Part shown: piece by piece, positions 11,907-64,000 of the stretch
Numbering within the stretch: the stretch's first letter is position 1
How the letters are laid out: each line of letters opens with the position of its first letter
Assembly: GCA_002010215.1 (NCBI GenBank)
Contig: MTMY01000002.1
Location: forward strand, 9,728 to 73,727
Source of the DNA: Archaeoglobus sp. JdFR-37
GTDB taxonomy: Archaea; Halobacteriota; Archaeoglobi; Archaeoglobales; Archaeoglobaceae
Direction of reading: 5' to 3'
DNA length: 64,000 nucleotides
Notes under the pieces: generated by a model
The model's input: the letters and a program-made list of their open reading frames with translations, nothing else
Database searches by the model: none
What the model was told of the DNA's origin: nothing
Program-made: the position numbers and the translations under genes

Positions 11907-12123
11907 TCCATTAAAAACACTATTTAAATTTTTTCAATATGTTAGTTTATATAAAAATCGAATCTGGGTAAGAAGTAATATAGGAAATATTAATTAAATC
12001 AAATTCAAACTAGATTTAAAATATTTAAATTTAAAAGATTGTCTCAGCAGGACCTTAGTAGATACAATTATATATCAACCACGAGAGAAATCTTTACAAG
12101 TTGTTAAAGGGAAATATGGTTAT

Positions 12124-24563: not shown

Positions 24564-25075
24564 ATGGGTGGGGTTAAATAGTGTCTATGTGTTCCACTTT
24601 CTGAGACGCTCAAATCGCCGACATCAATTGTTAGATAAATTCTAGAGAAATCTTCATTGATGGTTTGCATTGTAACACTTCTTTTCTCATCTGCAGCTAT
24701 AATTACCTCTCCCCCATTCTTCTTCCAAAGATTGTCATGAGGTGGTTGTTCTGCCAGCGCTTTTTGCATTCGTTTCATCACTTCTGGTGAGAATTCCGAA
24801 TAAACATACTCCTTTCCTCCTGAAAGATAGCCCTTGATAAGGTCCTCTGCGTACTTGTCACCGAGTTGCTCTTTTGCAGCTCTTATTGCCATCTCTGCCT
24901 TGAGAATCTCCTCATTAGTTAAGCCCTGTCCTTTTAGTGCTTTTCTGACTTCATTAATCTTCTTTTCAAATAACCTGTTGCTCTCAACGCTGTCAACAGT
25001 ATACGCTAATGCAGATGCTGTTAGTACCAACATCGCCACCAAACCTACAACAAAATTCCTAAGCTGCATAAACAC
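24530..25075 (-). CDS. Hypothetical secreted/anchored protein (signal peptide plus helical domain); possibly the 5' part of a frameshifted gene
   Basis: N-terminal hydrophobic signal VGLVAMLVLTASALA. The ORF ends 34 nt after the next ORF's ATG. Confidence 0.45.
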   Translation of the reverse strand: MFMQLRNFVVGLVAMLVLTASALAYTVDSVESNRLFEKKINEVRKALKGQGLTNEEILKAEMAIRAAKEQLGDKYAEDLIKGYLSGGKEYVYSEFSPEVMKRMQKALAEQPPHDNLWKKNGGEVIIAADEKRSVTMQTINEDFSRIYLTIDVGDLSVSESGTHRHYLTPPIWVVNMGSTHG

Positions 25076-25188
25076 ATTATGAAAAACAGATATAAAATTA
25101 TTTGTATTTTGGTAGGTTTTACCCTAACAAAATTTAGATTTGCCTAATTACCAAAACCTATTTTAATTCTTGTTATATTTTAAAGATT

Positions 25189-25698
25189 ATGGAAATCATT
25201 AAATTTGATACAAAAAGTTTTTACGCTCTATCCTCTGAAAATAGAATCAAAATACTTAAAACTCTGAAATCCAAGCGTATGACTCTTTCTGAACTGTCAA
25301 GAGAATTGAATTTATCCAAAACGTGTGTTAAAGAACATCTTGATGTATTAATAGACACAGGATTTATTAAAAAACTAGATGAAGAAAACAGAAAATGGGT
25401 TTACTATGAACTGACAGATAAAGGCGAGAAAGTTGTAAAAAATAATATAATAAAAATTTATATTGTAATCATGTTTTCCGCATTAATCATAGGTTCAGGG
25501 CTATATGAGCTAAATAAATATATAAAATCTATAGAAATAAAATCTATATCAACTCCTACCCCCACACCCATACCAACTACAACACCAATACCTTCAACAC
25601 CTCCCCTACCAGCAGAAGCCCATATAATTGCAGGAGTGATTTTATTAATAACTGGATTGTTCCTTTTGTCCAGAATATACTCCCAAAGGAAATTATGA
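25189..25698 (+). CDS. Membrane-anchored ArsR-family winged-helix transcription regulator
   Basis: ArsR-like wHTH (NRIKILKTL...MTLSELSRELNLSKTCVKEHLDVL), then a TM helix, the Pro/Thr linker TPTPTPIPTTTPIPSTPPLP and a second TM helix. Low-GC gene. Confidence 0.7.
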   Translation: MEIIKFDTKSFYALSSENRIKILKTLKSKRMTLSELSRELNLSKTCVKEHLDVLIDTGFIKKLDEENRKWVYYELTDKGEKVVKNNIIKIYIVIMFSALIIGSGLYELNKYIKSIEIKSISTPTPTPIPTTTPIPSTPPLPAEAHIIAGVILLITGLFLLSRIYSQRKL

Positions 25699-37055: not shown

Positions 37056-37294
37056 ATCACCACCTCTTTTTTAACGATTAAACATAAACGAATTGTCATA
37101 TTTATAATTTTCTGAACCATAAATGAATTTTGTAAAATATAGCCTTTTTGTTCTCTAGTATCAAAACTCTTAAATACTAAGATACCAATTAACTAAATTA
37201 AACTAACTATAAATAGTTATCGGTATAAAATACCGCAATCCTTAAATATGAAAATTGTATGAATTAAACATGTAATTTCTGGGAGGTGTGATGT

Positions 37295-40396: not shown

Positions 40397-40543
40397 AAAG
40401 CAAGTATTTAAGAATTTTGAAAAATTTTAAATCTCAATTGTTGAATAAAACTAATTTAAAACCGACTTTGAATAATACTAATAACGAAAATCTTATTAAC
40501 AATTGCTACAATATCGATTTCCAATAACAAGAGGGGTGATAAG

Positions 40544-51687: not shown

Positions 51688-52221
51688 CTAAACCCCGGCC
51701 ATTCTTCTGATGATTTTTACAAAATCTTCAGCATACTCCTCAGCCGGAATGCGCCAGAAGTTCTTTTCCCAGCGCTTCAGAGAGCCTTTTATCTGATAGT
51801 ATCGTCGTTTCTTCCGAAGTTTGAAAACAACATATGTCAGAAGCGATCCCGTCAGAATAGCTGGAACGGAGAACACAGGAGGTAAAAAGGCAATTAAAAG
51901 CAAATAAAACCAGAATATGCCTATGATGACAATAAATAGAGATTTGTCAATGTTGTACTCCTCAATCAGGTCAAAATCCTCAATTTTTGAGTAGGGGAGC
52001 TCTACAAGCTCAGGAAATTTATCCACAAATACTCCCAGCAACCTCTTGTTGGTGGCGAAAAAGTAGTAATCGTAGATTGTCGGGATGGCTGCAACATTAT
52101 ACGTTGCTGTCCACGCCTCTTTCCTGTAATGGAGCCTTGCAAGAACTTCTTCGTCTGGGTCCATTGCCTCTTTGAGGATTTTTTCTACTGCATTTTCCGA
52201 CGCTTTTTCTGGTGCGTCCAT
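51688..52221 (-). CDS. Hypothetical membrane protein (soluble N-domain plus two TM helices)
   Basis: ORF with a central hydrophobic hairpin. No confident family. Confidence 0.35.
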   Translation of the reverse strand: MDAPEKASENAVEKILKEAMDPDEEVLARLHYRKEAWTATYNVAAIPTIYDYYFFATNKRLLGVFVDKFPELVELPYSKIEDFDLIEEYNIDKSLFIVIIGIFWFYLLLIAFLPPVFSVPAILTGSLLTYVVFKLRKKRRYYQIKGSLKRWEKNFWRIPAEEYAEDFVKIIRRMAGV

Positions 52222-52323
52222 TTATACCATCTTTGTTTTGATCTGATAAAAATTGTTTTTTCTGGTGATTTAAAGGATTTTATCATTCAGCAAAAGTTTT
52301 AACCCAGCTGAGAAACAAAAATC

Positions 52324-53655
52324 GTGCCATTTGCAATCATGGTTGCCGGCACCCACAGCAGTGTTGGGAAGACCACTGCTTCCCTCTGCATAGCAGCAGC
52401 CCTGAAAAAGAGGGGGTTTGCTGTTCAGCCTTTCAAGGTTGGCCCCGATTTCATCGATCCCACCCACTACTCCTTCTGCAATCCTACTGTTATTCCCGCT
52501 GTTAATCTGGATGTTTTCATGATGGGCGAGGAAGGCGTTGAGCAATCCTTCAAAAGATGGCTGTCAGACAGCGACTTTGGAATTGTTGAGGGTGTTATGG
52601 GCCTCTACGACGGCTACAAACTGACCACCTTTGCTTCTTCAGCCCACGTGGCAAGGATTCTCAGTATTCCCGTAATCCTAGTTATGGATGTGAAGGGCAT
52701 GGCAAACTCAGCTCTGGCAGTGTTTAAAGGCTTTAAAACCTTTGAAGACGTTAATATCGCTGGCGTTATTTTCAGAGGTGTCAGCGAAGCATATTTTCAG
52801 CGGATCCGCAGGCTTTTCGAGAACGAAGGCGTTAGAGTTTTCGGGTACATTCCCGATAACGATGCGCTGAAGATTCCCAGCAGACATCTGGGCCTGAAGC
52901 TTGGTATGGAGGTTGAGAAGGACTGGAAGGCTTTTGCTGAGACTGGAGAAAGCTATCTCGACATAGACAGAATATTGGAGGCGTCTGCTCAGGTTGAGGT
53001 GGAGGAATATTACAGCTCTAAAGCTGGAACTCAGACAGCTGATGCCCCAACAATAGGCATACCCTTCGACTCCTGCTTCGCCTTCTATTACGCCGATAAT
53101 CTTGACGTGCTGAAGAAAATCGGAAAGCTGGAGTTCTTTTCACCCCTCAAAGGGGAGCTTCCTCAGTGCGACGCCTATTACATAGGCGGAGGGTATCCCG
53201 AGCTGTATCCGGAGCTCTCACCATACGCAAAAAAGTTCGCAAAAATCTGTCAGGACGAGATTCCAGTTTACGCTGAATGCGGAGGGATGATGTTCCTGGC
53301 CAGAGAGATAAGGAAAGATGAATCTGGATCCAATTCACACTCAGAGTCCAAATCAAAAATAAAAATGGCAGGTGTTCTTGACCTTGACATCATTTTCACC
53401 CAGAAACTTCAGGCACTGGGCTATGTAAAGGGTGAAATCATCAGGAGCAATCCAATTTTCCGGTCTTCATTCAGGGGGCATGAATTCCATTACAGTTATG
53501 CCGAAGCTGATGATGATGTGGTATTTGCTTTCAAGACTGACGGAAAGGGAATAAAAGGTGGCTACGATGGGGCTATGGTTTACAAAACCGTGGCAGGATA
53601 CTCCCACATCCATTTCTTCTCAACAAAAATTAGCATGGAATGTAAAAGAGGATGA
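52324..53655 (+). CDS. cbiA: Cobyrinate a,c-diamide synthase (CbiA/CobB family)
   Basis: P-loop GTHSSVGKTT. C-terminal glutamine amidotransferase region with AECGGMMFL and GHEFHYS. Confidence 0.85.
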   Translation: MPFAIMVAGTHSSVGKTTASLCIAAALKKRGFAVQPFKVGPDFIDPTHYSFCNPTVIPAVNLDVFMMGEEGVEQSFKRWLSDSDFGIVEGVMGLYDGYKLTTFASSAHVARILSIPVILVMDVKGMANSALAVFKGFKTFEDVNIAGVIFRGVSEAYFQRIRRLFENEGVRVFGYIPDNDALKIPSRHLGLKLGMEVEKDWKAFAETGESYLDIDRILEASAQVEVEEYYSSKAGTQTADAPTIGIPFDSCFAFYYADNLDVLKKIGKLEFFSPLKGELPQCDAYYIGGGYPELYPELSPYAKKFAKICQDEIPVYAECGGMMFLAREIRKDESGSNSHSESKSKIKMAGVLDLDIIFTQKLQALGYVKGEIIRSNPIFRSSFRGHEFHYSYAEADDDVVFAFKTDGKGIKGGYDGAMVYKTVAGYSHIHFFSTKISMECKRG

Positions 53656-54020
53656 AACAGTGTCTGGAAGTCCATTGCCCCTCTCTCCGCCCTTCTTAAT
53701 CAATAATTATCCGATTACAAAATATTAAAAAATCCGGCAAATGGCCATAAAATAACAGAAAAAACCGGTTTAGCTCAAAAATGACATGAGAATTTCTAAA
53801 TAAACTAAATCTGGACAGTGGTGCTTTTTTTATTTTGCCTGAGCTCTGTGCAAACTCCTTCAAATTGGGCGAAAACTTTAAAAATCAATATACTTTACGA
53901 TGTTTTCGAGTCGAATCGTAGCTTACCGGTTTAAGAGTGTAATTTCCCGAATAAAAGGCCGTAAGGCTGCTAAACCGTCAGAATAATTGAAAATTCCGTA
54001 AAGGTGGTGAAAAAAGATGG

Positions 54021-54368
54021 GTGATGGCGATGATTGTCGGAAAGCACATAATTGCCGAATTATATGGAGTTCCAAAGGAGTTGATTTCATATGAGAAGAC
54101 AGTCAGAGACATCGTGGAGGAGGTTGTAGATGCGGCTGGATTGACAAAAGTAGGAAGTGTTTACAAGCAATTCAATCCCCACGGCGTAACAGGCATTGTT
54201 TTGATTGCCGAGAGCCACGTAAGCATCCATACCTGGCCGGAGTATGAGATGGTGAACCTCGATATCTTCACGTGTGGGGACATCAAGAAGACAGAGAGGG
54301 CATTTGAACTGTTTTTGGAAAGATTTAAACCAAAAGAATACCGGCATTATGTTCTTGACAGGGGTTGA
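54021..54368 (+). CDS. speH: S-adenosylmethionine decarboxylase proenzyme (SpeH, small archaeal/bacterial class)
   Basis: KHIIAELYG start region and the self-processing site AESHVSIHTWPEY. The exact start is ambiguous (54021/54024/54030). Confidence 0.85.
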   Translation: MMAMIVGKHIIAELYGVPKELISYEKTVRDIVEEVVDAAGLTKVGSVYKQFNPHGVTGIVLIAESHVSIHTWPEYEMVNLDIFTCGDIKKTERAFELFLERFKPKEYRHYVLDRG

Positions 54369-54395
54369 ATGTTTGTTTGTTAAGAGGTTATAGCG

Positions 54396-55430
54396 ATGAT
54401 GCGAAGAATAAGAAACCAGATTTTTCAGGCACTGCTTTCTGGAGGGGTGTCAGGTCTGTCAGTTTACAAGCTCATAGACAGCCAGGATTCCTCGCTTCCC
54501 GAATTCTTCCAGCTCCTCCACCAGTTGGAGGATGAAGGGCTGATTGCACTGGAAGGTGGTAAAGTATCCCTGACCCAGAAAGGCCTGGAATTATGCAGAG
54601 AAATGAACATCAAAAGCACAGACGTCTCATGTCAATATTGCGGAAGAACTGGCTACTCCATTGCAGGATTTTTCCAGGAGGTCCTTAAAACCTACAAGGA
54701 GATTTCAGCAGAGAGACCCGAGGCAATTGAGCTTTACGATCAGGGCTTTATCAGCCACGAGGGGGTCATAAGAAGGGTTGAATTCGTCCATGAGAGGGGA
54801 GATTTAGCTAATTCCAAGATTTTCGTGGTTGGAGATGATGACCTCTTCAGCATAGCTGCAGCTCTAACAGGTATGCCGAAAAAGGTGACTGTTGTTGAGA
54901 TAGATGAGAGGCTGGTTAATTTCATCAACAAAACCGCAGATGAGTACTCTCTGCCTGTTGAGGCAAGAGTTTATGATGTGCAGCAAGCCTTTCCGGATGA
55001 TTTGAGGGGCAAATATCACGTTTTTGTTACGGATCCGGTTGAGACTCTTCCCGGCCTAAAGCTTTTCCTCTCCAGAGGTGTTTCCACACTTGAAGGGCCT
55101 GGCTGCAGCGGTTATTTCGGAATAACAACACTAGAAGCCTCAAGGAAGAAATGGTACGAGATTCAGCGGATGATACACGAAATGGGTTTCATAATCACAG
55201 ATCTCAGAAGGAAGTTCAGCGTGTATCCGCAGGAGGAGAAGAACTTCTTCCGTTTCCAAGAGAAGCTACCTATCGTGAGAAAGCTTGGGGCAGAAATAGA
55301 CCACAACTGGTACACCTCCACCCTCTTCAGAATAGAGGCTGTAAAGGAGCCCAAGCCCATTGTAGAGGGGGAGATGATCATAGACGAGAAGGTTTACAAG
55401 GACGATGAGAGCTGGGCCACCCCCTACTGA
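54396..55430 (+). CDS. bpsA: N4-bis(aminopropyl)spermidine synthase BpsA-like (branched-chain polyamine synthase, DUF43)
   Basis: N-terminal wHTH-like region and the VVGDDDLFS motif. About 345 aa, immediately downstream of speH. Confidence 0.75.
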   Translation: MMRRIRNQIFQALLSGGVSGLSVYKLIDSQDSSLPEFFQLLHQLEDEGLIALEGGKVSLTQKGLELCREMNIKSTDVSCQYCGRTGYSIAGFFQEVLKTYKEISAERPEAIELYDQGFISHEGVIRRVEFVHERGDLANSKIFVVGDDDLFSIAAALTGMPKKVTVVEIDERLVNFINKTADEYSLPVEARVYDVQQAFPDDLRGKYHVFVTDPVETLPGLKLFLSRGVSTLEGPGCSGYFGITTLEASRKKWYEIQRMIHEMGFIITDLRRKFSVYPQEEKNFFRFQEKLPIVRKLGAEIDHNWYTSTLFRIEAVKEPKPIVEGEMIIDEKVYKDDESWATPY

Positions 55431-55499
55431 TTCTTTTTTACTTCTTTTTACTTCATTTTCTCCTTTTCCCCATTCCTCGCTTCCCCTTCACGATTAACT

Positions 55500-56537
55500 T
55501 CACTGATCCCTTATTCTCTTTTCCAGAATTTTCACTCCCAGCAGAAGAGAGGCTGCAGAAACTGCTGCATACAAGGATATCTCAACGGGCAGGAAATAAG
55601 ATCCCGCTGAGACTCTTGCAATTAAACCGGAGGGCATGAAGGGGGAGATGTAGAAGAGGGGTAGCAGCGAGACTATTGTTAAGGAGAAGATCAATTGTGC
55701 CCTCTCCCTATCTCCACTGAGACTGGAGAAGCAGGCTACTGCTACAAAGAGGGAGGAAATTGAGAGGGTTATCACCAGCACCAATATAGGTCTGGCGATG
55801 TCTATGCCATTTATCATCAGCAGAAGAATCCATACGGGTGTCAGAAGAGCTGATAAAGAGAGAGCCGCCGCAACCTTCCCCATCACAATTTCCCATGCCC
55901 TCAACGGTGTTGAGAGTAGAACATGAGCGGTCTTGCTTTCCACCTCTTCACTGATGAGGTCTATGAAGAGTCCGCCTGCACTAAGAGCTGTGGTAATGAC
56001 AAGGAGAGGAATCAAAACCATGTATATGAATTTGAAGGATGCAGATATTCCGTTAGGCTCTTCTACCTCCTTCATTTCTGGAGAGAAAACCTTAATTGGG
56101 ATTTTCCCTGGAATTCCGTTCATGCTTCTGAGTTTTGCCTCATACTCCATCAATTTCTCCCTCAAATACGAGGTTGCTACTATCGCCACAACTTCCTCCT
56201 TAGGGAGGTAAACCGTTACGAAGTTCTCGGAACTGTTTTCCTCAGGCAGCAAAACTATTGCATCTATTCTTCCTGCATAAAAATCCTCAAAAGCTTCATC
56301 CAGGCTACCATATTTCTTCTCAGGCTTCAAAACACTTGCTAGGACGGGGGCATCTCCCACCAGTCCAACCTTCGCCTGATTTGCTGCCAGGAAGGTGGGA
56401 TTATACAGCACCAGCATTCCAATGGTTATTATGGATGCAAGCCCAGCAACAAATAGTTGGAGGAGTACTATGCTCACGAATGTCTTTTCTTTCAGGGCTG
56501 ATCTGATGTCCTTTACCATCACGTTAAGCCAAGACAA
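55500..56537 (-). CDS. ABC-2 type transporter permease
   Basis: N-terminal TM helix, a large extracytoplasmic loop, then 5 TM helices. Overlaps the upstream permease-like gene by 14 nt. Confidence 0.6.
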   Translation of the reverse strand: MSWLNVMVKDIRSALKEKTFVSIVLLQLFVAGLASIITIGMLVLYNPTFLAANQAKVGLVGDAPVLASVLKPEKKYGSLDEAFEDFYAGRIDAIVLLPEENSSENFVTVYLPKEEVVAIVATSYLREKLMEYEAKLRSMNGIPGKIPIKVFSPEMKEVEEPNGISASFKFIYMVLIPLLVITTALSAGGLFIDLISEEVESKTAHVLLSTPLRAWEIVMGKVAAALSLSALLTPVWILLLMINGIDIARPILVLVITLSISSLFVAVACFSSLSGDRERAQLIFSLTIVSLLPLFYISPFMPSGLIARVSAGSYFLPVEISLYAAVSAASLLLGVKILEKRIRDQ

Positions 56538-58221
56538 AAGTCACCACCCCGAGGTTGTAGGCGAAATGTAGTAGGGTTGCAGCCACGTAGGCCAGCCAGT
56601 ACCCCTTTGGATTCAGGCGAATCAGGTAGCTGAAAAGCAAAAGGGTAGAAACGTGGAGGGCAAGGGGTAACACCAGCATTCCAGCCATCATAGCGTTGCT
56701 GAAGATACCAGCATCAACAACCACCAGCAATTTCTCAAAAATCAGGAAAGTTATGCCTCCAACAACCCCTGCTTTCCACCATTCCAGTCCATTCCTGATG
56801 GCTGAGTGCAGAGCTACAGTCTTGAAGAACTCCTCTACTGCGGCGATGGTCATGAGGAAGAATGGGATGGAGACGTGAAGCGGAAAGGCAAAGAGGGTGG
56901 TTGCGAGCATGAACTCTACCATGAAAATAGGTGCTATTGACAGCCCCATGTAAGCTATGAGCGAAGGGTATCCCGTCACTACCCGCCTGCACGCCTCCAG
57001 AAACCTCTCTACAATTCCACCCTGATACTCAAGAAATTCAGCATCCAAAGCTCTTACACATATCAGGCTGATAAAGATGAATGCAGCAAAAAACTGGAGG
57101 GTGGAGACGAAGTATTCTCTGAGAGTCACCGTTTCTCCTTCGAGGTTTGAAAGGAGGAGAGTTATGGGAGAGACTTTACTGAAGGGCACCGTTCCTGCAA
57201 ATATAGCAGGGATGAACAGGTATCCAGTTATCACAAGAGACGATACCAAGATTAGGAACGTCATCTCCTTATAGCTTCTTGAAAGCAGGGCAAACAGCGT
57301 CTGGATGGAGAATAAAAATAGAAGTGGAGGAAGAATGTAGAGTGCTGAACTAGGATTTGCCAGAAGGATTGATGAAAAGAGGACGAGAGAAGTGGATAGC
57401 AAAAAATAGGGCAGCATTTTACCCAGCAGTATGTCTCGGGGAGAAAGAGGCGTTGAAAGAAGAGACACAAGCCTCCCGCTGAACCTGTCTTCTATAAATG
57501 AGGAGGAATAAACTTGAATAGCGAAATATGACGGGAGGATCAGGAGAAATGCATAAATCATCTTTCCCATGAGGCTCGGTGGCGAAAAAGTCGATGGGGT
57601 CGTGTATCCTTTCTCACCAAAGATGAGCTTTCCAACATCAAAGGTTCTCTTTTCTCCTCCCGATGGAATTTTAGGCTCCGGGGTGTGCTCAGGTATTCCG
57701 CTTTTCTCCTTGGGTTTTCCAACTTCAGTTTCACCTCTCTCAACAGCCTTTCTGACCTCCTCAAGGTTGACGGTGCCAGAAGGGGTTGCGATGTGCCCAC
57801 GATCCACGTAAACAGCCCTAACAAAAACAGGATACGCTTTCTTTCCATACCTCTGATACAGAAACTCCTCAAAATCTGATCTTATAGCCTTAATCAATTC
57901 CTCAGTTGCTGCAAGAGACTTTTTGCTGCCAGAGGTGATTACGTAAAGAGTGCCATCAAAACCCAAGTAAACATCTGCATACTCTTTTTTCACCGTTTCT
58001 CTCCCTTCTGGTGGTTCAGCATGGAAAGTTATGAATCTCGAATCCTTCAACTCTATTTGAGTGGCTGCGGTGTACATCATGTAATCGGATTTAAAGCCTG
58101 AAAACGACATGATGGCTGAAAGGGCAGCGAATGTTATCAGGAGGAGGAGCAGGAAGGTGAACCTCTTTCCGTACTTCTTTCTTGATTTCTTTATCTCCAG
58201 AAGGGTTACTTTTAGCATCAA
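56524..58221 (-). CDS. Fusion membrane protein: ABC-2 permease-like N-terminal half plus CPBP (CAAX/Abi) intramembrane protease-like C-terminal half
   Basis: ABC-2 pattern LLSTPLSPRDILLGKMLPY. C-terminal AAVEEFFKT (EExxxR-like) and HFAYN (HxxxN) motifs. Confidence 0.5.
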   Translation of the reverse strand: MMLKVTLLEIKKSRKKYGKRFTFLLLLLITFAALSAIMSFSGFKSDYMMYTAATQIELKDSRFITFHAEPPEGRETVKKEYADVYLGFDGTLYVITSGSKKSLAATEELIKAIRSDFEEFLYQRYGKKAYPVFVRAVYVDRGHIATPSGTVNLEEVRKAVERGETEVGKPKEKSGIPEHTPEPKIPSGGEKRTFDVGKLIFGEKGYTTPSTFSPPSLMGKMIYAFLLILPSYFAIQVYSSSFIEDRFSGRLVSLLSTPLSPRDILLGKMLPYFLLSTSLVLFSSILLANPSSALYILPPLLFLFSIQTLFALLSRSYKEMTFLILVSSLVITGYLFIPAIFAGTVPFSKVSPITLLLSNLEGETVTLREYFVSTLQFFAAFIFISLICVRALDAEFLEYQGGIVERFLEACRRVVTGYPSLIAYMGLSIAPIFMVEFMLATTLFAFPLHVSIPFFLMTIAAVEEFFKTVALHSAIRNGLEWWKAGVVGGITFLIFEKLLVVVDAGIFSNAMMAGMLVLPLALHVSTLLLFSYLIRLNPKGYWLAYVAATLLHFAYNLGVVTFVLA

Positions 58222-58267
58222 AATGTGGTCAAAACCACTAAATATATGTTTAACCGTTATTAATCTT

Positions 58268-59107
58268 GTGCTGAAAGTTGAGGGTTTGAGAAAGGTTTAT
58301 GGCGATATAATTGCCGTTGATTCCATCAGCTTTCACCTTGAGAAAGGAGAAATCCTCGGACTGATCGGTGAGAACGGAGCTGGCAAGTCCACAACTCTCA
58401 AAATGGTTTCGGGGCTTATAAAACCCGATGCCGGGAGAGTGGAGTTTTCTGGGAAAGAGCTGTTTTCCAATCTGAATGAAATAAAAATGAGAATAGGGTA
58501 CCTTCCCGAATTCGATGCCCTCTATGATGGGATGACCGCTAAAGAATACCTGATGTTCTTCTCTTCCCTCTATGGTGTAGAGGGCGCCCAAGCTGAAGAG
58601 AGAGCTGAAAAGCTTATGGAGATGCTCAAAATACCTTCCGATCGAAGACTCGGGGCTTTCTCCAAAGGCATGAAGAGAAAGGTATCCATCGCCAGAACTC
58701 TCATGCACGATCCAGAATATCTGATATACGATGAGCCTACCGGCGGGCTGGATCCGGGCACATCCCTTTTCATTGCCGAATTTCTTGGTGGGTTGAGAGA
58801 TGAGAAAAAATCAATCATTTTCTCCGCCCACAACATGTATTACGTGGAATCGGTCTGTGACAGGGTTGCAATAATGAAAAAGGGTAAGCTCATCTATTTC
58901 GGTGATATTGACGAGCTAATAAAAGCTGGCAGAAAATACGTGATCGTTTACTCTGAAAATGGCCGAGAGGAGAGGATGACCACTGAAAGTATTGATGAAC
59001 TTAATAGAATTTTGAGGGATGTAATTTCCTCTGGAGGGAAAATACTGAAAGTAGAGCCTGAAGTCATGAGACTGGAAGATGTGTACTTTTCTCTGGTTGG
59101 GAAATAA
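58268..59107 (+). CDS. ABC transporter ATP-binding protein (ABC-2 subfamily)
   Basis: GTG 58268 gives (M)LKVEGLRKVYG. Walker A GENGAGKST, signature FSKGMKRKV, Walker B LIYDEPTGGLD. The upstream part of the 332-aa ORF overlaps the divergent gene. Confidence 0.9.
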   Translation: MLKVEGLRKVYGDIIAVDSISFHLEKGEILGLIGENGAGKSTTLKMVSGLIKPDAGRVEFSGKELFSNLNEIKMRIGYLPEFDALYDGMTAKEYLMFFSSLYGVEGAQAEERAEKLMEMLKIPSDRRLGAFSKGMKRKVSIARTLMHDPEYLIYDEPTGGLDPGTSLFIAEFLGGLRDEKKSIIFSAHNMYYVESVCDRVAIMKKGKLIYFGDIDELIKAGRKYVIVYSENGREERMTTESIDELNRILRDVISSGGKILKVEPEVMRLEDVYFSLVGK

Positions 59108-59188
59108 GTGGAATATAAGTGGAATGACTGGGTAAAAGATATATTACATGTGATGTAAAACAATTCCAAAGGAGGTGATGGTGTGGCG

Positions 59189-59347
59189 ATGGATCCAGTA
59201 TGTGGGATGGAGGTGGACGAGAAAACTGCAAAGTTCAAAACTGAATATAAGGGGAAGACCTACTACTTCTGCGCCCCCGGCTGCAAGTTCATGTTTGAGA
59301 GAGATCCGGAAAAATATCTTAAAGAGGGTCCTGTGGGGATGGAGTGA
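59189..59347 (+). CDS. YHS/TRASH-domain small metal-binding protein (52 aa), absent from the ORF track
   Basis: My own translation: MDPVCGMEVDEKTAKFKTEYKGKTYYFCAPGCKFMFERDPEKYLKEGPVGME. GGAGGTGA RBS at 59171-59178; an alternative GTG start lies at 59183. Confidence 0.7.
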   Translation: MDPVCGMEVDEKTAKFKTEYKGKTYYFCAPGCKFMFERDPEKYLKEGPVGME

Positions 59348-59458
59348 CGTGAAGAGTTTGGTCAGTGACGGTCACTGGCAGTAGTTGATGCTAAGTGTTG
59401 CTAAGTGACATTAAATGCACTACCATAAAATGCAACATTGTTAAACATTACTTTTTCA

Positions 59459-59483
59459 CCCCCACCCCTTTATTTCCTGTGGA
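59459..59483 (-). promoter_or_regulatory. ORB-like origin recognition box (Orc1/Cdc6 binding-site consensus), left inverted copy
   Basis: The minus strand reads TCCACAGGAAATAAAGGGGTGGGGG, a 25/25 match to 63323-63347. Confidence 0.55.
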
Positions 59484-59515
59484 ACTATCTGTAGAGCTAC
59501 ATGGATTATGCGGGC

Positions 59516-60955
59516 CTACCCCAAAAACCCTCTTATTTTTCCTGCCCTCGTTACAGCTTCTCTAGGGTCTCCTCCCATAGAAAGAGCTTCAATAACATCT
59601 GAAGTTGCCCTCAAATGCTCTTCATCTGGCTTATAATCAAAGAACTCTAGAGCTCGATTTACATCGTCCTCTAGAGGGATGATTTTAAGGCTTTCAGGAT
59701 TGTAACAGGACAAGGCTTTTTCCATGACATCTTCAAAGCCTCCAAAGTGCTCCATGACCGCTTCCAGATCTTTATCTGTAAAACCAGAGAACCCTATGAG
59801 TTCTGGAGGAAATCCGATGGAGTAAAGAGTTGCACAGAAAGTTATGGCTCTAGGTAACTTAACACCATCACCTCTCGCATATCCAAACAGTCCGATATGG
59901 AGTTTTCTCATTCTTCTTCTTGGTATATAACGGCTGAAGGAGTTTACAAAGTTTGCAACAGCAGGTATTCTATCCCTATAGGACTTGCTCATTCTTTCAA
60001 TAATTTTGATTATGCTTTCATCGATGTGTTGCGGTCTGCCAAGCTTCCTATGCTTTATCCTATCAATTGCCTTTCTAACAATATCTGGAGGATAATCATA
60101 TTTAAAGGCTGACTGAACTGTGAAGGTTAAGACTGAAGTATATTCTTCAAGAACGCCCAGATTCTCAGGGGTAAGGAAGCCTCTGAAGGGTGTGGTTCCG
60201 ACACCTATTATTGGATGGACATCGAAATTATCAATTTCAGAGAGTTTTAGCAGTGCTATCTTCGCAGCAAGAGTTGCCGGGATGAATCCATAATTCAATG
60301 CTGGATCCGACCTAGCAAGAAAAACTCTTATCTCCTCGAATTTCTTGTCCCTCATATATTCCTCGAGGATTTTGTGACATTCCAGCATTACTGGTATATC
60401 CTCAAAAAGTGGAATTATGCTTATTTCCTCGGGTTTAAATTCCCCAAGCCAGTCTCTGATCCTAATTCCATCCCTTAAGTATAAGTCCCCTTTACCCGCT
60501 ACAAAATCCTTATAGTAATAAAAAATCCTGTTGAGTTCTTGGGAATTTGTAACCATTGGAACTATGACCTCAAAGATGGGGCATACTTCTTCTCCATAAA
60601 ACACCTCAGCGGCATCGTAACTTCTAGGTATTATTTCCAGAGTTTCAGGTAGCAGCTTTGCTTCAGTAGCCTCTACTGAAGGATTTGGGACCCTTAGTGT
60701 AATTCTAACATCCTGACCCAGTTTATGAGCTGAGAAAAAGTCGGGATAATATGTCAGCAATTTTTTGACTACAAACTCGTCTACTTCCTTACCCTCACAA
60801 TCCCACATCTGCTCATCACAGCCCAGATGGGAGAAAACGTAGTAAGCCTCCCTTATTTCATCCTCGCCATCAAAATACTCCCTGTTAACGAAGAAGGGCA
60901 TGGTAACATTATCAGGATGTTGCGTGCTCATAGCCCTTGGAATTTTCGGAATCAT
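59516..60955 (-). CDS. ppcA: Archaeal-type phosphoenolpyruvate carboxylase
   Basis: N-terminus MIPKIPRAMSTQHPDN is diagnostic of the archaeal PEPC family. About 480 aa. Confidence 0.85.
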   Translation of the reverse strand: MIPKIPRAMSTQHPDNVTMPFFVNREYFDGEDEIREAYYVFSHLGCDEQMWDCEGKEVDEFVVKKLLTYYPDFFSAHKLGQDVRITLRVPNPSVEATEAKLLPETLEIIPRSYDAAEVFYGEEVCPIFEVIVPMVTNSQELNRIFYYYKDFVAGKGDLYLRDGIRIRDWLGEFKPEEISIIPLFEDIPVMLECHKILEEYMRDKKFEEIRVFLARSDPALNYGFIPATLAAKIALLKLSEIDNFDVHPIIGVGTTPFRGFLTPENLGVLEEYTSVLTFTVQSAFKYDYPPDIVRKAIDRIKHRKLGRPQHIDESIIKIIERMSKSYRDRIPAVANFVNSFSRYIPRRRMRKLHIGLFGYARGDGVKLPRAITFCATLYSIGFPPELIGFSGFTDKDLEAVMEHFGGFEDVMEKALSCYNPESLKIIPLEDDVNRALEFFDYKPDEEHLRATSDVIEALSMGGDPREAVTRAGKIRGFLG

Positions 60956-61112
60956 TGTTGGTTTATTTTTTGTAGGACACAAAAGAGTTATTGTGGGATG
61001 TTAGTAAAGTGTACTAATAAGAACACATCGGAATGTATCTCTATATCGATATTTGTGTGGTTTGTTTGAAGATTACAATCTTGAGATTGATTTTGTGTAA
61101 TGTCATGAATTA

Positions 61113-61724
61113 CTACGAATAGAGAATTGTAGCGAATTCGTAAACCACAGCAGTAACCAATGGGACTGAGAAATTATCGTTTATGTAGTATTTTCCAATT
61201 TTAGTAAGCTTCGTTTCCACAATAACAGCAATAATGGTTGCTAGAAACGCAGCGGGGAGAGATATGTAAATGTATGCGCTGATAAATAAAATTACGAGTA
61301 GTGATGAGAGTAACATAGAAAGTGGTGCAATATTTTTCCAAATTTTTTTCACTATACCAGCAACTCCATCTCCAGCGGATCCACAAGCAATTGCTACAAA
61401 ACAAGCTTGAGGTGAGAATAGCAGAGTTACCGGTAGCATAGATATGCCAAAGTAAACATATGCCCCAACACCACCCCTTTCATAACCTCTCAGGATCCAC
61501 TTGGGGAAAATCTCAGTTTTTCTCCTTAAAATTTCCAGAAAAATAGCGATGAGAGTTAAAAAAGCCACGACAGTGAATGTGGTCCAGCGATCAGTAAAGA
61601 TGTAAAATGGAATATAAGCCAGTCCCGCTAAATGAATCCCCTTCCTTAGTAACTCTCCTTTTAGACTGTCTTTTATACTATCTGCGTTACTCAACAGCGA
61701 TTCTCTCCAGCTGACTAGAAACAT
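61113..61724 (-). CDS. Polyprenol/dolichol kinase family membrane protein (CTP-dependent, SEC59/VTE5-like)
   Basis: GELLRKGIHLAG motif and 6 TM helices. An alternative TTG start at 61694 overlaps the upstream stop. Confidence 0.6.
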   Translation of the reverse strand: MFLVSWRESLLSNADSIKDSLKGELLRKGIHLAGLAYIPFYIFTDRWTTFTVVAFLTLIAIFLEILRRKTEIFPKWILRGYERGGVGAYVYFGISMLPVTLLFSPQACFVAIACGSAGDGVAGIVKKIWKNIAPLSMLLSSLLVILFISAYIYISLPAAFLATIIAVIVETKLTKIGKYYINDNFSVPLVTAVVYEFATILYS

Positions 61725-61944
61725 TCCAGATTAAAGTTCTGACATGCATGGGTATGTTTGGATCCGATGATATTTCTTCGAGAATTGAAATGGCAGATGC
61801 CGCTCTTACAGCCAAGCTCTCCTCACCGTGGAGAAGGTTCTCTTTTATCTCACTTGCAGTCTTTCTTATGTTTCTGGGAACTGTATCATCATGGATTATT
61901 CTATCCAGAACCTCAAGAACACTCTCTGGCACCTTCTGCCCCAT
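61687..61944 (-). CDS. UPF0147 family protein
   Basis: 85-aa helical protein with the DDTVPRNIRKTASE ... DPNIPMHVRTLIW repeats typical of archaeal UPF0147. Confidence 0.7.
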   Translation of the reverse strand: MGQKVPESVLEVLDRIIHDDTVPRNIRKTASEIKENLLHGEESLAVRAASAISILEEISSDPNIPMHVRTLIWNVSSQLERIAVE

Positions 61945-61998
61945 GCAACCACCTCCTGAAAACTGAATGTTTTTATTTCTCTGTTGTGCAGTAAGGGT

Positions 61999-62346
61999 AT
62001 GGAGGATAAAAAAATTTCGGAAGCAGCAAAAGCACTCGTTCGCGGTGCAAAAATGTTATCACAACACTGTCCAGAGTGTAAACTTCCTCTTTTCCAAGAA
62101 GGTGAGAGAGTTTACTGCCCATCATGCGGCAGGGATGTGGTGATTGTATCCGACGCTGAGGATGTTTCTGACATTTCCAATAAAGTCGAAGTGCCTATGA
62201 CAATTTCAAAAAATGCTGAAAGAAATTTGGAGAGACTCATTGATGAATTATCAGCCAAGCTTCTAGAGTCGAGTTATAGTGAGATGAGAGAAATCCTCGA
62301 TATTATGCTCAAAACTGTAGAAATTCTTAATAAACTGAAGAAATAA
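61999..62346 (+). CDS. Zinc-ribbon protein of the Sjogren/scleroderma autoantigen p27-like (UPF0148) family
   Basis: GAKMLSQHCPECKLPLF...VYCPSCG pattern. ATG 61999. Confidence 0.7.
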   Translation: MEDKKISEAAKALVRGAKMLSQHCPECKLPLFQEGERVYCPSCGRDVVIVSDAEDVSDISNKVEVPMTISKNAERNLERLIDELSAKLLESSYSEMREILDIMLKTVEILNKLKK

Positions 62347-62580
62347 ATAAATTTTTCGAATCGTCTTTTAACCATAACTAACCTGAAATGATTAATACAA
62401 AAGATGCAGAATACTGGTTAATCAGCTTATATTCTAACTAATTAATCTTTTTGTTATTTTAATACTAATTATAATTTATAATAAAATAGTCTATAAAAAT
62501 TTGAAATCCGTACTATTTAGCTATTGAAGACTAAATAAAAAGAAGGAAAAGTTTAATAATTATAAAGGGATTTATCCAGT

Positions 62581-63336
62581 ATGGATATTGCCCTAATCGG
62601 GAAGATAACAGCCGTACTAGGGATGATTGCATCACTCTCTCTGCTTTATTTCTTGGGTACAATGAAAGACGAAGACTTCGATAAAATGATATGGTATTGG
62701 AACTCTTTAAACAAGCACTTTATCCTTTCAGCTATTGTCTTCATTATGATTTGTATTATGGAACTGCTAGAACTAATTTCAAACTTTACGGGTTTTAGGA
62801 TTGGTAACTTTAGAATAGCATATTATTCTATAATATCCTTTACTTTGTTTGTAATCATACTGAATATTGTGAAGATAATTACAAAAATTGAGGGATTAAT
62901 ATCAAATCTTGAAAGTTCTATGTTTTTTAGCAGATTTAGTATAATATTACTTTATATTATTGTCATCTTGATCTCTGTCGATCATGTCAAGGATATTTAT
63001 CCTATTTACTACTTTGCTGAAATCTTTTCCGAGGTAGTTTATGTTCTTTCAATCCCTATCATCATCCACATTGTTTTTAGATCAATCAAGTACGATAAAC
63101 TCATTAGGAATGGGATAATAGTTGTTCCACCACATATTCCAGCAAAGTTTCTTGGCGTCGCCACTTCATTTATTCTATTCTCTGCAGCTTTTATAATGCT
63201 CCTAGCCGGTAATGAGAAGTCCTATGATATTTTGGAGTTTGGTGCTCTAATTGCTTTTGTATTAGCGGGGGATTCTTACAGAAGGGATATGGATAAAGCT
63301 CTCAAGTTGGTGAGTTCAAATCTCCACAGGAAATAA
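62581..63336 (+). CDS. Orphan polytopic membrane protein in a markedly AT-rich segment
   Basis: A 251-aa open frame in AT-rich DNA is unlikely by chance. Ile/Leu/Phe-rich TM helices. The stop codon lies inside the right ORB-like box. Confidence 0.4.
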   Translation: MDIALIGKITAVLGMIASLSLLYFLGTMKDEDFDKMIWYWNSLNKHFILSAIVFIMICIMELLELISNFTGFRIGNFRIAYYSIISFTLFVIILNIVKIITKIEGLISNLESSMFFSRFSIILLYIIVILISVDHVKDIYPIYYFAEIFSEVVYVLSIPIIIHIVFRSIKYDKLIRNGIIVVPPHIPAKFLGVATSFILFSAAFIMLLAGNEKSYDILEFGALIAFVLAGDSYRRDMDKALKLVSSNLHRK

Positions 63337-63347
63337 AGGGGTGGGGG
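63323..63347 (+). promoter_or_regulatory. ORB-like origin recognition box (Orc1/Cdc6 binding-site consensus), right inverted copy
   Basis: TCCACAGGAAATAAAGGGGTGGGGG. With the 2 preceding nt it reads TCTCCACAGGAAATAAAGGGGT. Confidence 0.55.
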
Positions 63348-63453
63348 GCAGTGGGTATCAGGTGTTTCACTGTGTTATAGCTGAGTTAGAGATTAGTCAA
63401 TGTGCGGGGGTGGGTGTTATAAGTAAGTGGACAATCAGGTATGAAGACTTTAA

Positions 63454-63705
63454 TTACTCCCTGATTATTCTGAAAATGACCGTATTTTCCGGGTCAGGAC
63501 ATTGCAAAACCTCGACAACATTTATCCAGTCTTCAGGTGGGGTCTCTCTATATGCGGCAGTGATATATGGAAGCAAGGCTGATATTGCGTATATGCAAAG
63601 CCTACCGGTTATGACCGGGTCCTCAACTTCTATTACGTCCCCTTTCTGATAACCTGCATAACACTCTCCTCTGACGTTTTCCACTACGATTCTCAACTTC
63701 TTCAT
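63454..63705 (-). CDS. TIGR04076-family small protein
   Basis: 83 aa. GECYAGYQKGDVIEV ... LQCPDPENTVIFRI matches my memory of the TIGR04076 family pattern. Confidence 0.6.
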   Translation of the reverse strand: MKKLRIVVENVRGECYAGYQKGDVIEVEDPVITGRLCIYAISALLPYITAAYRETPPEDWINVVEVLQCPDPENTVIFRIIRE

Positions 63706-63851
63706 GATTGTACGTTATGATATCTCTTCTTAAGGTTTGGCATATTGTGCTGTTAAGTCTGGATTGGAAGGTAAAAGGAGCAAGATAACAAAAACTGGAA
63801 AGTTTGAGATCCAAAACCTTGTAAAAGTTAAAAAATCGAATTCCCCGAAAA

Positions 63852-64000
63852 TCAGGGCTGCTTTATCTCTTCCGGTCTGTAATGTTTGGACAGCTTGTCC
63901 AAGAAATCCTCAAAACTTATCGTGTTAAGAATGCTCCAGTCGAAAGGTTCAGCATCTCTTTCCTCAATGTAGAGGGCGTTTGTGGGGCAGACTGCTATGC
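63852..64000 (-). CDS. C-terminal fragment of a 4Fe-4S ferredoxin-domain protein (5' part beyond window end)
   Basis: My own translation of the minus strand: ...AIAVCPTNALYIEERDAEPFDWSILNTISFEDFLDKLSKHYRPEEIKQP stop (TGA at 63852-63854). Confidence 0.5.
   Translation of the reverse strand, partial: IAVCPTNALYIEERDAEPFDWSILNTISFEDFLDKLSKHYRPEEIKQP

Follow-up and report, generated by a model that had tools for sequence, protein, structure and literature searches.

Well-described archaeal replication origins, such as Pyrococcus abyssi oriC, Sulfolobus oriC1 and Aeropyrum pernix oriC1, are built from inverted origin recognition boxes (ORBs), each a long, footprint-sized site (36 bp in Sulfolobus; PMC1904270) with a TCCA-type dyad, GGAAA, a short spacer and a GGGGT G-string. 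A single intergenic region of less than 1 kb, adjacent to orc1/cdc6, holds the boxes; an AT-rich stretch lies on their dyad side, and mini-ORBs are usually present as well. ORB origins are already known as a kind, and the legend to Fig. 6A of Dueber 2011 (PMC3089459) describes an alignment of an ORB of Archaeoglobus fulgidus with A. pernix and P. furiosus ORBs. The origins of Archaeoglobales are poorly defined, with a marker-frequency map for one species. Here we describe a 64-kb stretch of DNA from Archaeoglobus sp. JdFR-37 (the window), which contains a perfect inverted pair of 25-nt boxes of this class. These too are long and footprint-sized and are inverted relative to each other, and an AT-rich tract, a candidate unwinding element, is found on their dyad side. 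Unlike the canonical origins, however, the locus has two boxes only; they are separated by 3.84 kb and five genes, and orc1 is absent from the ~70 kb of available sequence. We propose that these boxes probably mark a chromosomal origin, or one of several, which is unlinked from orc1 and has genes embedded between its boxes.

The inverted pair and the origin recognition box class

The window contains exactly two copies of the 25-mer TCCACAGGAAATAAAGGGGTGGGGG, one at 59459-59483 on the minus strand (ORB_L) and the other at 63323-63347 on the plus strand (ORB_R). A third copy was not found in the window even when three mismatches were allowed, and 100 shuffles gave none. A repeat finder returned one inverted pair with arms of 25 nt that are 100% complementary and separated by 3839 nt, and the match between the arms ends at both edges of the 25-mer. 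The pair had first been noticed in a reading of the letters alone, without database searches (the sequence-only reading), and the exact search and the repeat finder both bear it out; the plus copy with its flanks, TCTCCACAGGAAATAAAGGGGT, is exactly as reported there. The G-strings point outward, leftward in ORB_L and rightward in ORB_R, which as a box extends over 63323-63351 although its repeated part stops at 63347. Both boxes lie between convergent genes: ORB_L is 33 nt past the stop codon of ppcA, between the convergent YHS and ppcA genes, and ORB_R covers the final four codons and the stop of a gene for a 251-aa membrane protein. Within ORB_R, positions 63323-63336 encode the C-terminal LHRK and the stop codon of this protein. 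Two common spacer variants of the box, TAA and TGA, each preserve a stop in the 251-aa frame (window 63323-63336; locus L140, 261-280), so that the box and the gene end co-vary and neither is broken.

We then compared the repeat with described ORBs. Its first 20 nt agree at 19 of 20 positions with the published 'Common' archaeal ORB motif TCCA[CG]T[TG]GAAA[TC][GA]AAGGGGT (Table 1 of the Ori-Finder 2 paper, PMC4164010), and all the features of the sequence class are present, namely a TCCA-type dyad, GGAAA, a spacer of 3-4 nt and a GGGGT G-string. A pattern scan of 185,579 species genomes with TCCACAGGAAANNNAGGGGT gave at least 120 matching stretches (8 kb each), and 108 of the 120 listed are archaeal by record title. 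They come from many phyla, and the groups represented include Woesearchaeota, Methanosarcinales, Methanoregulaceae, Thermoplasmatota, Thorarchaeota, Bathyarchaeia, Aigarchaeota, Desulfurococcales and Archaeoglobales. In the listed archaeal matches the three free bases of the spacer depart strongly from random toward T/C-R-A, with TGA, TAA, CGA, CAA and TCA dominating. The 12 bacterial records (locus L006 is among the loci so labelled) have random-looking spacers. A locus labelled 'uncultured bacterium' (L058) has the archaeal-type TAA spacer instead and may be a mis-binned archaeal contig.

Clustering of the open reading frames (ORFs) in the listed loci showed that the commonest neighbour, present in at least 31-34 loci, is a protein of ~400 aa, which is Orc1/Cdc6 by Pfam (Cdc6_lid and Cdc6_C). 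Among the matches listed, the motif lies at most 500 bp upstream of orc1 in at least 20 loci, with the G-string toward orc1 in 17 of 20, and the next most recurrent neighbours are DNA polymerase D subunits and a Hel308-like helicase. The exact 25-mer was found by a metagenome scan in six contigs, all from other organisms. Two of these (L127 and L128), from an archaeon unrelated to the source archaeon, carry it ~200 bp upstream of orc1 with more boxes around, and the 29-nt sequence TCCACAGGAAATAAAGGGGTGGGGGGCAG is common to ORB_R and this orc1-adjacent box. A literature search for the literal string CCACAGGAAA returned unrelated primer sequences only. Taken together, the consensus match, the orc1-upstream sequence class and the exact 25-mer flanking orc1 elsewhere uphold the identification made in the sequence-only reading: in the strict comparative sense, the two 25-mers are ORBs.

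Gene content and conservation of the bracketed segment

A divergent gene pair forms the conserved core between the boxes. It consists of a UPF0147 gene (61687-61944, minus strand; Pfam PF03685, E = 1e-34; NCBIfam NF053638, 'stationary phase-response protein') and a p27-like zinc-ribbon gene (Auto_anti-p27; 61984-62346, plus strand; Pfam PF06677, E = 1.1e-13). Across Archaeoglobales, an inverted ORB pair with outward G-strings brackets these two genes, with the boxes 1 to 10 kb apart. The distance is 1.07 kb in locus L130, where UPF0147 and p27 alone lie between the boxes, 2.9 kb in the Ferroglobus metagenome-assembled genome (MAG) L075, 3.9 kb in this window and in L136 and L140, 5.3 kb in Archaeoglobus sp. 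UBA234 (L051), 9.6 kb in the Ferroglobus MAG L135 and 10.2 kb in Ferroglobus placidus (1.218-1.228 Mb of CP001899). Archaeoglobus veneficus, the nearest named relative by UPF0147 (91% identity), has a bracket of ~8 kb (~161-169 kb of CP002588) with two direct boxes on one side and a box with two mismatches on the other. This comparison of loci shows that the inverted ORB pair around UPF0147/p27 is an order-wide feature. An IS240-family transposase gene lies near the A. veneficus boxes (L132, 4443-5081), and in F. placidus a HEPN/nucleotidyltransferase pair is found inside the bracket (L134, 7026-7710).

The association extends beyond the order. The p27-like gene, often with UPF0147, stands beside ORBs in Archaeoglobales, Methanothrix and Aigarchaeota/HR01, and in the latter two immediately by orc1 (p27/UPF0147 at 61687-62346 of the window, L065 3176-3944, L033 4217-4684, L044 6399-6782 and L120 5658-6032). 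The order in Methanothrix (L065) is ORB(-), p27, UPF0147, an AT-rich spacer, two ORB(+) and orc1, and at three Aigarchaeota/HR01 loci p27 is directly beside an ORB pair and orc1. UPF0147 adjoins ORBs in at least 9 loci, and the p27-like gene in at least 12 loci from three clades. Judged by gene order, the bracket layout is shown to be common to Archaeoglobales and to the orc1-linked origin region of Methanothrix. A literature search found no report linking UPF0147 or the p27-like family to replication.

More compact arrangements were also seen. Directly 3' of p27, locus L130 (6091-6215), from an uncultured relative, and A. veneficus (L132, 9310-9474) each have an inverted box/mini-box pair with dyads inward and 90-130 bp between, and these pairs resemble a minimal origin core. 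In a Geoglobus relative, three direct ORBs share a single intergenic region next to AF_0155/Fer4, which are the genes following ORB_R in the window; this fits the genome paper of Geoglobus ahangari, in which no ORB was found adjoining either cdc6 gene (PMC4600277).

The other three genes between the boxes are passengers. The ppcA gene, encoding an archaeal-type phosphoenolpyruvate (PEP) carboxylase (59516-60982, minus strand; Pfam PEPcase_2, E = 1.5e-181), is, by locus comparison, missing between the boxes of Ferroglobus, A. veneficus and L130. The ORF at 61113-61724 (minus strand) encodes a 203-aa membrane protein with a homologue in L136, L140 and L051. Pfam thus confirmed ppcA, UPF0147 and the p27-like gene as first named from the sequence, while the label 'polyprenol-kinase-like' for the 203-aa ORF could not be verified, with no Pfam or NCBIfam match to the protein. 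The third passenger, at 62581-63336 (plus strand, 33.5% GC), is the 251-aa membrane-protein gene. It has kept 251 codons with zero indels in three lineages, with substitutions by codon position of 61:23:121, and by this pattern is a real, conserved gene; the protein has no Pfam or NCBIfam family match. Its GC content compares with 45% for the window, and its amino-acid identity of 72% with 85-100% for its neighbours, i.e., it evolves faster. The gene could derive from foreign DNA that was inserted long ago between p27 and the right box. It also accounts for most of what had been described as 1 kb of AT-rich DNA, in which a 234-bp tract is real and the remainder is this gene.

Several metagenomes yielded identical contigs that continue 5.5 kb past the right end of the window, and this extension encodes a ferredoxin, an AF_0155-family protein, a GATase, a solute symporter, eIF2-gamma and a PIN protein. 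The genes in and around the segment comprise ppcA, the membrane proteins, UPF0147, p27, YHS, a TIGR04076-family gene and ferredoxin.

A candidate origin between the boxes

Averaged over 89 archaeal instances among the matches listed, AT content for 300 bp on the dyad side is 4-6 percentage points above the locus mean, whereas the corresponding excess next to the G-string is only 0-3 points. Since the orc1-proximal box aims its G-string at orc1, one would look for the unwinding region beyond the dyad, which for both boxes of the window means inside the bracket. The polarity first described for the pair, dyads inward and G-strings outward, fits this excess. Inside the bracket lies an intergenic tract of 234 bp (62347-62580, unstranded) with 17-28% GC, which we take as the best candidate unwinding element. 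It is 0.75 kb from the nearer box. Both the 100-bp window and the 200-bp window with the highest AT content in the 64 kb fall within it, which points weakly in the same direction, as does a bias in the DNA left of the locus, where 62% of coding bases are transcribed away from it (62:38). Alignment with L136 and L140 showed that the blocks TTTATAAAAATTT and GGTTTAATAATT are conserved in the tract while the rest is divergent. Other stretches of the window are nearly as AT-rich (16-24% GC at 11909-12108, 25068-25543, 37077-37276 and 40405-40504), and the kilobase at 25-26 kb has 35% GC. The 'short direct repeats' once noted at 59389-59456, by the left box, proved to be only imperfect 10-12-mers that are not conserved in relatives.

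We infer that Orc1/Cdc6 binds the two predicted sites and that replication starts between them, with the AT-rich tract serving as the unwinding element. By analogy with characterised origins, one Orc1/Cdc6 molecule would occupy each box, with its winged-helix domain on the TCCACAGGA dyad and its AAA+ domain on the G-string. With the boxes in mirror orientation and both dyad ends pointing inward, the two initiators would face the enclosed DNA, and the orientation of the boxes could direct MCM loading and unwinding inward, most plausibly at 62347-62580.

Several observations weigh against an origin at this locus. No orc1/cdc6 was found in the 64-kb window by tblastn with 32 Orc1 queries, as the sequence-only reading had already noted, nor in the 5.5 kb beyond its right end; moreover, no orc1-like ORF was found in any Archaeoglobales locus that we examined. 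The mini-ORB TCCACAGGAAAT gave 15 matches at up to two mismatches, where 8.7 were expected, and none near the locus is convincing. The 20-mer ORB consensus, at up to four mismatches, gave further matches in the window at chance level only, so the earlier count of two full copies and no clear mini-ORBs stands, with nothing further above chance. The compact ORB/mini-ORB pair of close relatives has no counterpart in the window. Five genes occupy the 3.84-kb box-to-box segment (59484-63322), and the boxes and the putative unwinding element are thus not contained in one intergenic region of ~1 kb or less, as they are in the compact canonical origins. The lead of the AT-rich tract is marginal (19.5% GC against 21.5-22.5% at three other places): the tract is real, but it is only marginally the most AT-rich of the window. 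It also doubles as a promoter, as TATA-like promoter blocks of the 251-aa gene lie within it. GC skew over the 64 kb tracks gene orientation and is uninformative. In the complete genome of Archaeoglobus sulfaticallidus (L145, CP005290, 1665111-1685371), no ORB was found within 10 kb of UPF0147/p27, so that the association is not universal. Finally, the A. fulgidus origin was reportedly mapped to the 'central region' of its map. A. fulgidus has no entry among the best 120 protein matches to UPF0147 or to the AF_0155 homologue. As for A. sulfaticallidus, an IS605 OrfB gene lies 1 kb from its UPF0147/p27 pair, and the locus may have been rearranged.

These observations could also be accommodated if the boxes were genuine Orc1/Cdc6-binding sites at which replication does not initiate, either as a dormant or relic origin, or because an Orc1 paralogue has a regulatory or architectural role at UPF0147/p27 or acts as a barrier at convergent gene ends. 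We consider this a serious alternative, although clearly the less likely one. It would explain the lack of a linked orc1, the wide spacing and the missing mini-ORBs, and it suits the position of both boxes between convergent genes and the NCBIfam name 'stationary phase-response protein' for UPF0147. There are also precedents, as regulatory, non-initiator Orc1 paralogues exist by the account of PMC9738581 (Sulfolobus Orc1-2), and PMC5663688 describes origins as dispensable in some archaea (T. kodakarensis). However, full-length boxes of the same class with G-strings sit at orc1-linked origins in more than 20 other archaea, and in the Methanothrix version of the layout orc1 and an AT-rich spacer are physically connected to the boxes. 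A position at the 3' ends of genes, and not at promoters, is a poor fit to a transcription-factor role, and a relic would be expected to decay, yet the boxes are perfectly kept across genomes that are 73-80% identical. On balance, we favour a locus at which replication probably starts.

Recombination between the boxes and comparison with known systems

Lineages that agree at 25 of 25 and 24 of 25 positions in the boxes have flanking DNA that is 73-80% identical or unalignable, and this contrast shows that the boxes are under strong constraint. The two boxes of one genome are usually identical beyond the consensus, yet they differ between genomes. The spacer and the tail after the box are TAA and GGGGG in the window, TAA and GGGGGGC in L136, TGA and GGGGG in L140 and L142, and TAA and GGGTGTT in L075; F. 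placidus has the spacer CAA, and L135 has TGA with 33 identical nt in all. We also compared gene orders among contigs encoding an identical UPF0147 protein. Two configurations were seen: in configuration A (the window, L137, L140, L141 and L142) YHS abuts the ppcA end of the segment and the TIGR04076-family gene abuts the 251-aa end, while configuration B (L136, L138 and L139) has the reverse arrangement. A blastn comparison of the window with L136, from a related species, showed that 52001-59347 and 63454-64000 are collinear and 59459-63349 is reversed, which places the breakpoints inside both boxes, the left one in ORB_L and the right one in ORB_R. Recombination between identical inverted boxes would keep the boxes identical (concerted evolution) and would also invert the segment. 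The shared box variants and the breakpoints show that the boxes recombine with each other, and such inter-box recombination has inverted the enclosed segment at least once in the lineage.

Ferroglobus also shows an inversion. Between F. placidus (L134, 7808-10258) and the MAG L135 (7826-10259), the ProRS-p27-UPF0147 block has switched orientation against the flanking Big_1 and T2SSE/F genes, and both blocks lie inside a ~10-kb ORB bracket. The only repeat found at the breakpoints of this inner inversion in the two genomes is a weak 16-nt inverted pair in L135. In the MAG L075, the boxes are exactly at the ends of the ProRS-p27-UPF0147 block.

A perfect inverted repeat that bounds a segment known in both orientations, and whose arms evolve in concert, is what would be expected of a programmed invertible switch (Hin/Gin-type, or a shufflon), in which the 3.8-kb cassette flips to alter expression. 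This is nevertheless very unlikely. Neither the segment nor its surroundings encode a recombinase, the repeat is a pan-archaeal ORB and not a lineage-specific site, and both junctions are at gene 3' ends, so that a flip would rewire no promoter. In addition, the two configurations occur in lineages that are 73-80% identical in DNA, and among the assembled contigs no sample has both; a metagenome scan with the exact 25-mer found no alternative junction for the source species. Since A and B are found in separate lineages and never in one sample, they represent an evolutionary inversion and not a demonstrated switch.

Both copies are sense-oriented at the 3' ends of their genes (ppcA and the 251-aa gene), and the 25-mer could for this reason be imagined to act as RNA, i.e., as a terminator, a 3' untranslated region element or a repetitive extragenic palindromic (REP)-like gene-end repeat. 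This is even harder to credit, as there was no Rfam match at E <= 1 and no terminator-like hairpin or T-run at the boxes, folding was no better than for shuffled sequences (z = -0.7 and +0.4), and the same box lies upstream of genes, e.g., orc1, in other genomes. Nor does the 25-mer look dispersed over many gene 3' ends, an outcome that the sequence-only reading had held open: the ~70 kb covered here has two copies, and each genome among the matches listed contributes one or two 8-kb stretches. The least probable explanation, which we hardly entertain, is that the repeats are the terminal inverted repeats of a transposon or mobile element carrying the enclosed genes, given that beyond the 25-nt inverted termini and the AT-richness of the 251-aa gene and its upstream tract relative to the genome, there is no transposase or integrase, no target-site duplication (the sequences outside the arms, ...TTTTCAC and GCAGTGG..., are not direct repeats) and no empty site, the flanks are unchanged in relatives, the cargo is housekeeping ppcA and a gene pair conserved at the locus across the order, and the repeat itself is the ORB consensus. 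The 25-mer is probably not a dispersed repeat, and it is not a terminator, an RNA element or a transposon end. A tRNA-fragment or attachment-site idea, arising from GTTCAAATC before the right copy, was also tried and rejected, as ARAGORN detected no tRNA anywhere in the 64 kb and the two copies are inverted, not direct.

Returning to an origin marked by the two boxes, a more specific and tentative extension is that Archaeoglobales and Methanothrix have a 'split' origin, in which two boxes enclose a conserved UPF0147/p27 cassette that they repeatedly flip and homogenise, and in which both proteins are hitherto unrecognised origin-associated factors, e.g., regulators of initiation in response to growth phase. 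We regard this as speculative; it draws on the presence of p27 beside ORB/orc1 origins in Aigarchaeota and on the name 'stationary phase-response protein' of UPF0147. The recurrent linkage of these two uncharacterised small proteins to ORBs in three distant clades nominates them for a role at origins.

A literature search returned no report of a kilobase-wide, gene-enclosing ORB bracket across Archaeoglobales and Methanothrix, nor of its linkage to UPF0147/p27, the concerted evolution of its boxes or an inversion with breakpoints in the boxes. The locus provides a sequence-defined origin candidate that recurs in Archaeoglobus, Ferroglobus and Geoglobus, including cultivable species. Its layout suggests that an ORB origin can operate, or persist under selection, with boxes kilobases apart, genes between them and the initiator unlinked. 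Inverted initiator sites are at the same time substrates for recombination, which explains both their identity and the inversion of the putative origin segment.

A close counterpart is the orc1-linked region of Methanothrix (L065), where the gene pair is likewise embedded between inverted boxes with G-strings outward. It differs in that orc1 comes right after the right-hand boxes, the spacing is 1.7 kb, there are two boxes on the right and there are no passenger genes. A. fulgidus belongs to the same order as the source archaeon, and its origin is not known to be adjacent to either cdc6 gene. A single origin was inferred there by marker frequency (Maisnier-Patin 2002, as cited in PMC4010727). 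The DNA-damage regulon of Sulfolobus Orc1-2, as described in PMC9738581, offers a parallel of another kind, in that an Orc1-family protein binds motifs away from orc1 genes. By the same account the motif there is a different one and the sites belong to promoters, whereas here a full initiator-type ORB lies at gene 3' ends. Symmetric inversions centred on the origin occur in bacteria and in Thermococcales. The present case is similar, as a segment holding a putative origin is inverted between related genomes, but here the breakpoints fall exactly inside both initiator boxes and the inverted piece is only 3.9 kb, which points to recombination between the boxes themselves and not between distant fork positions.

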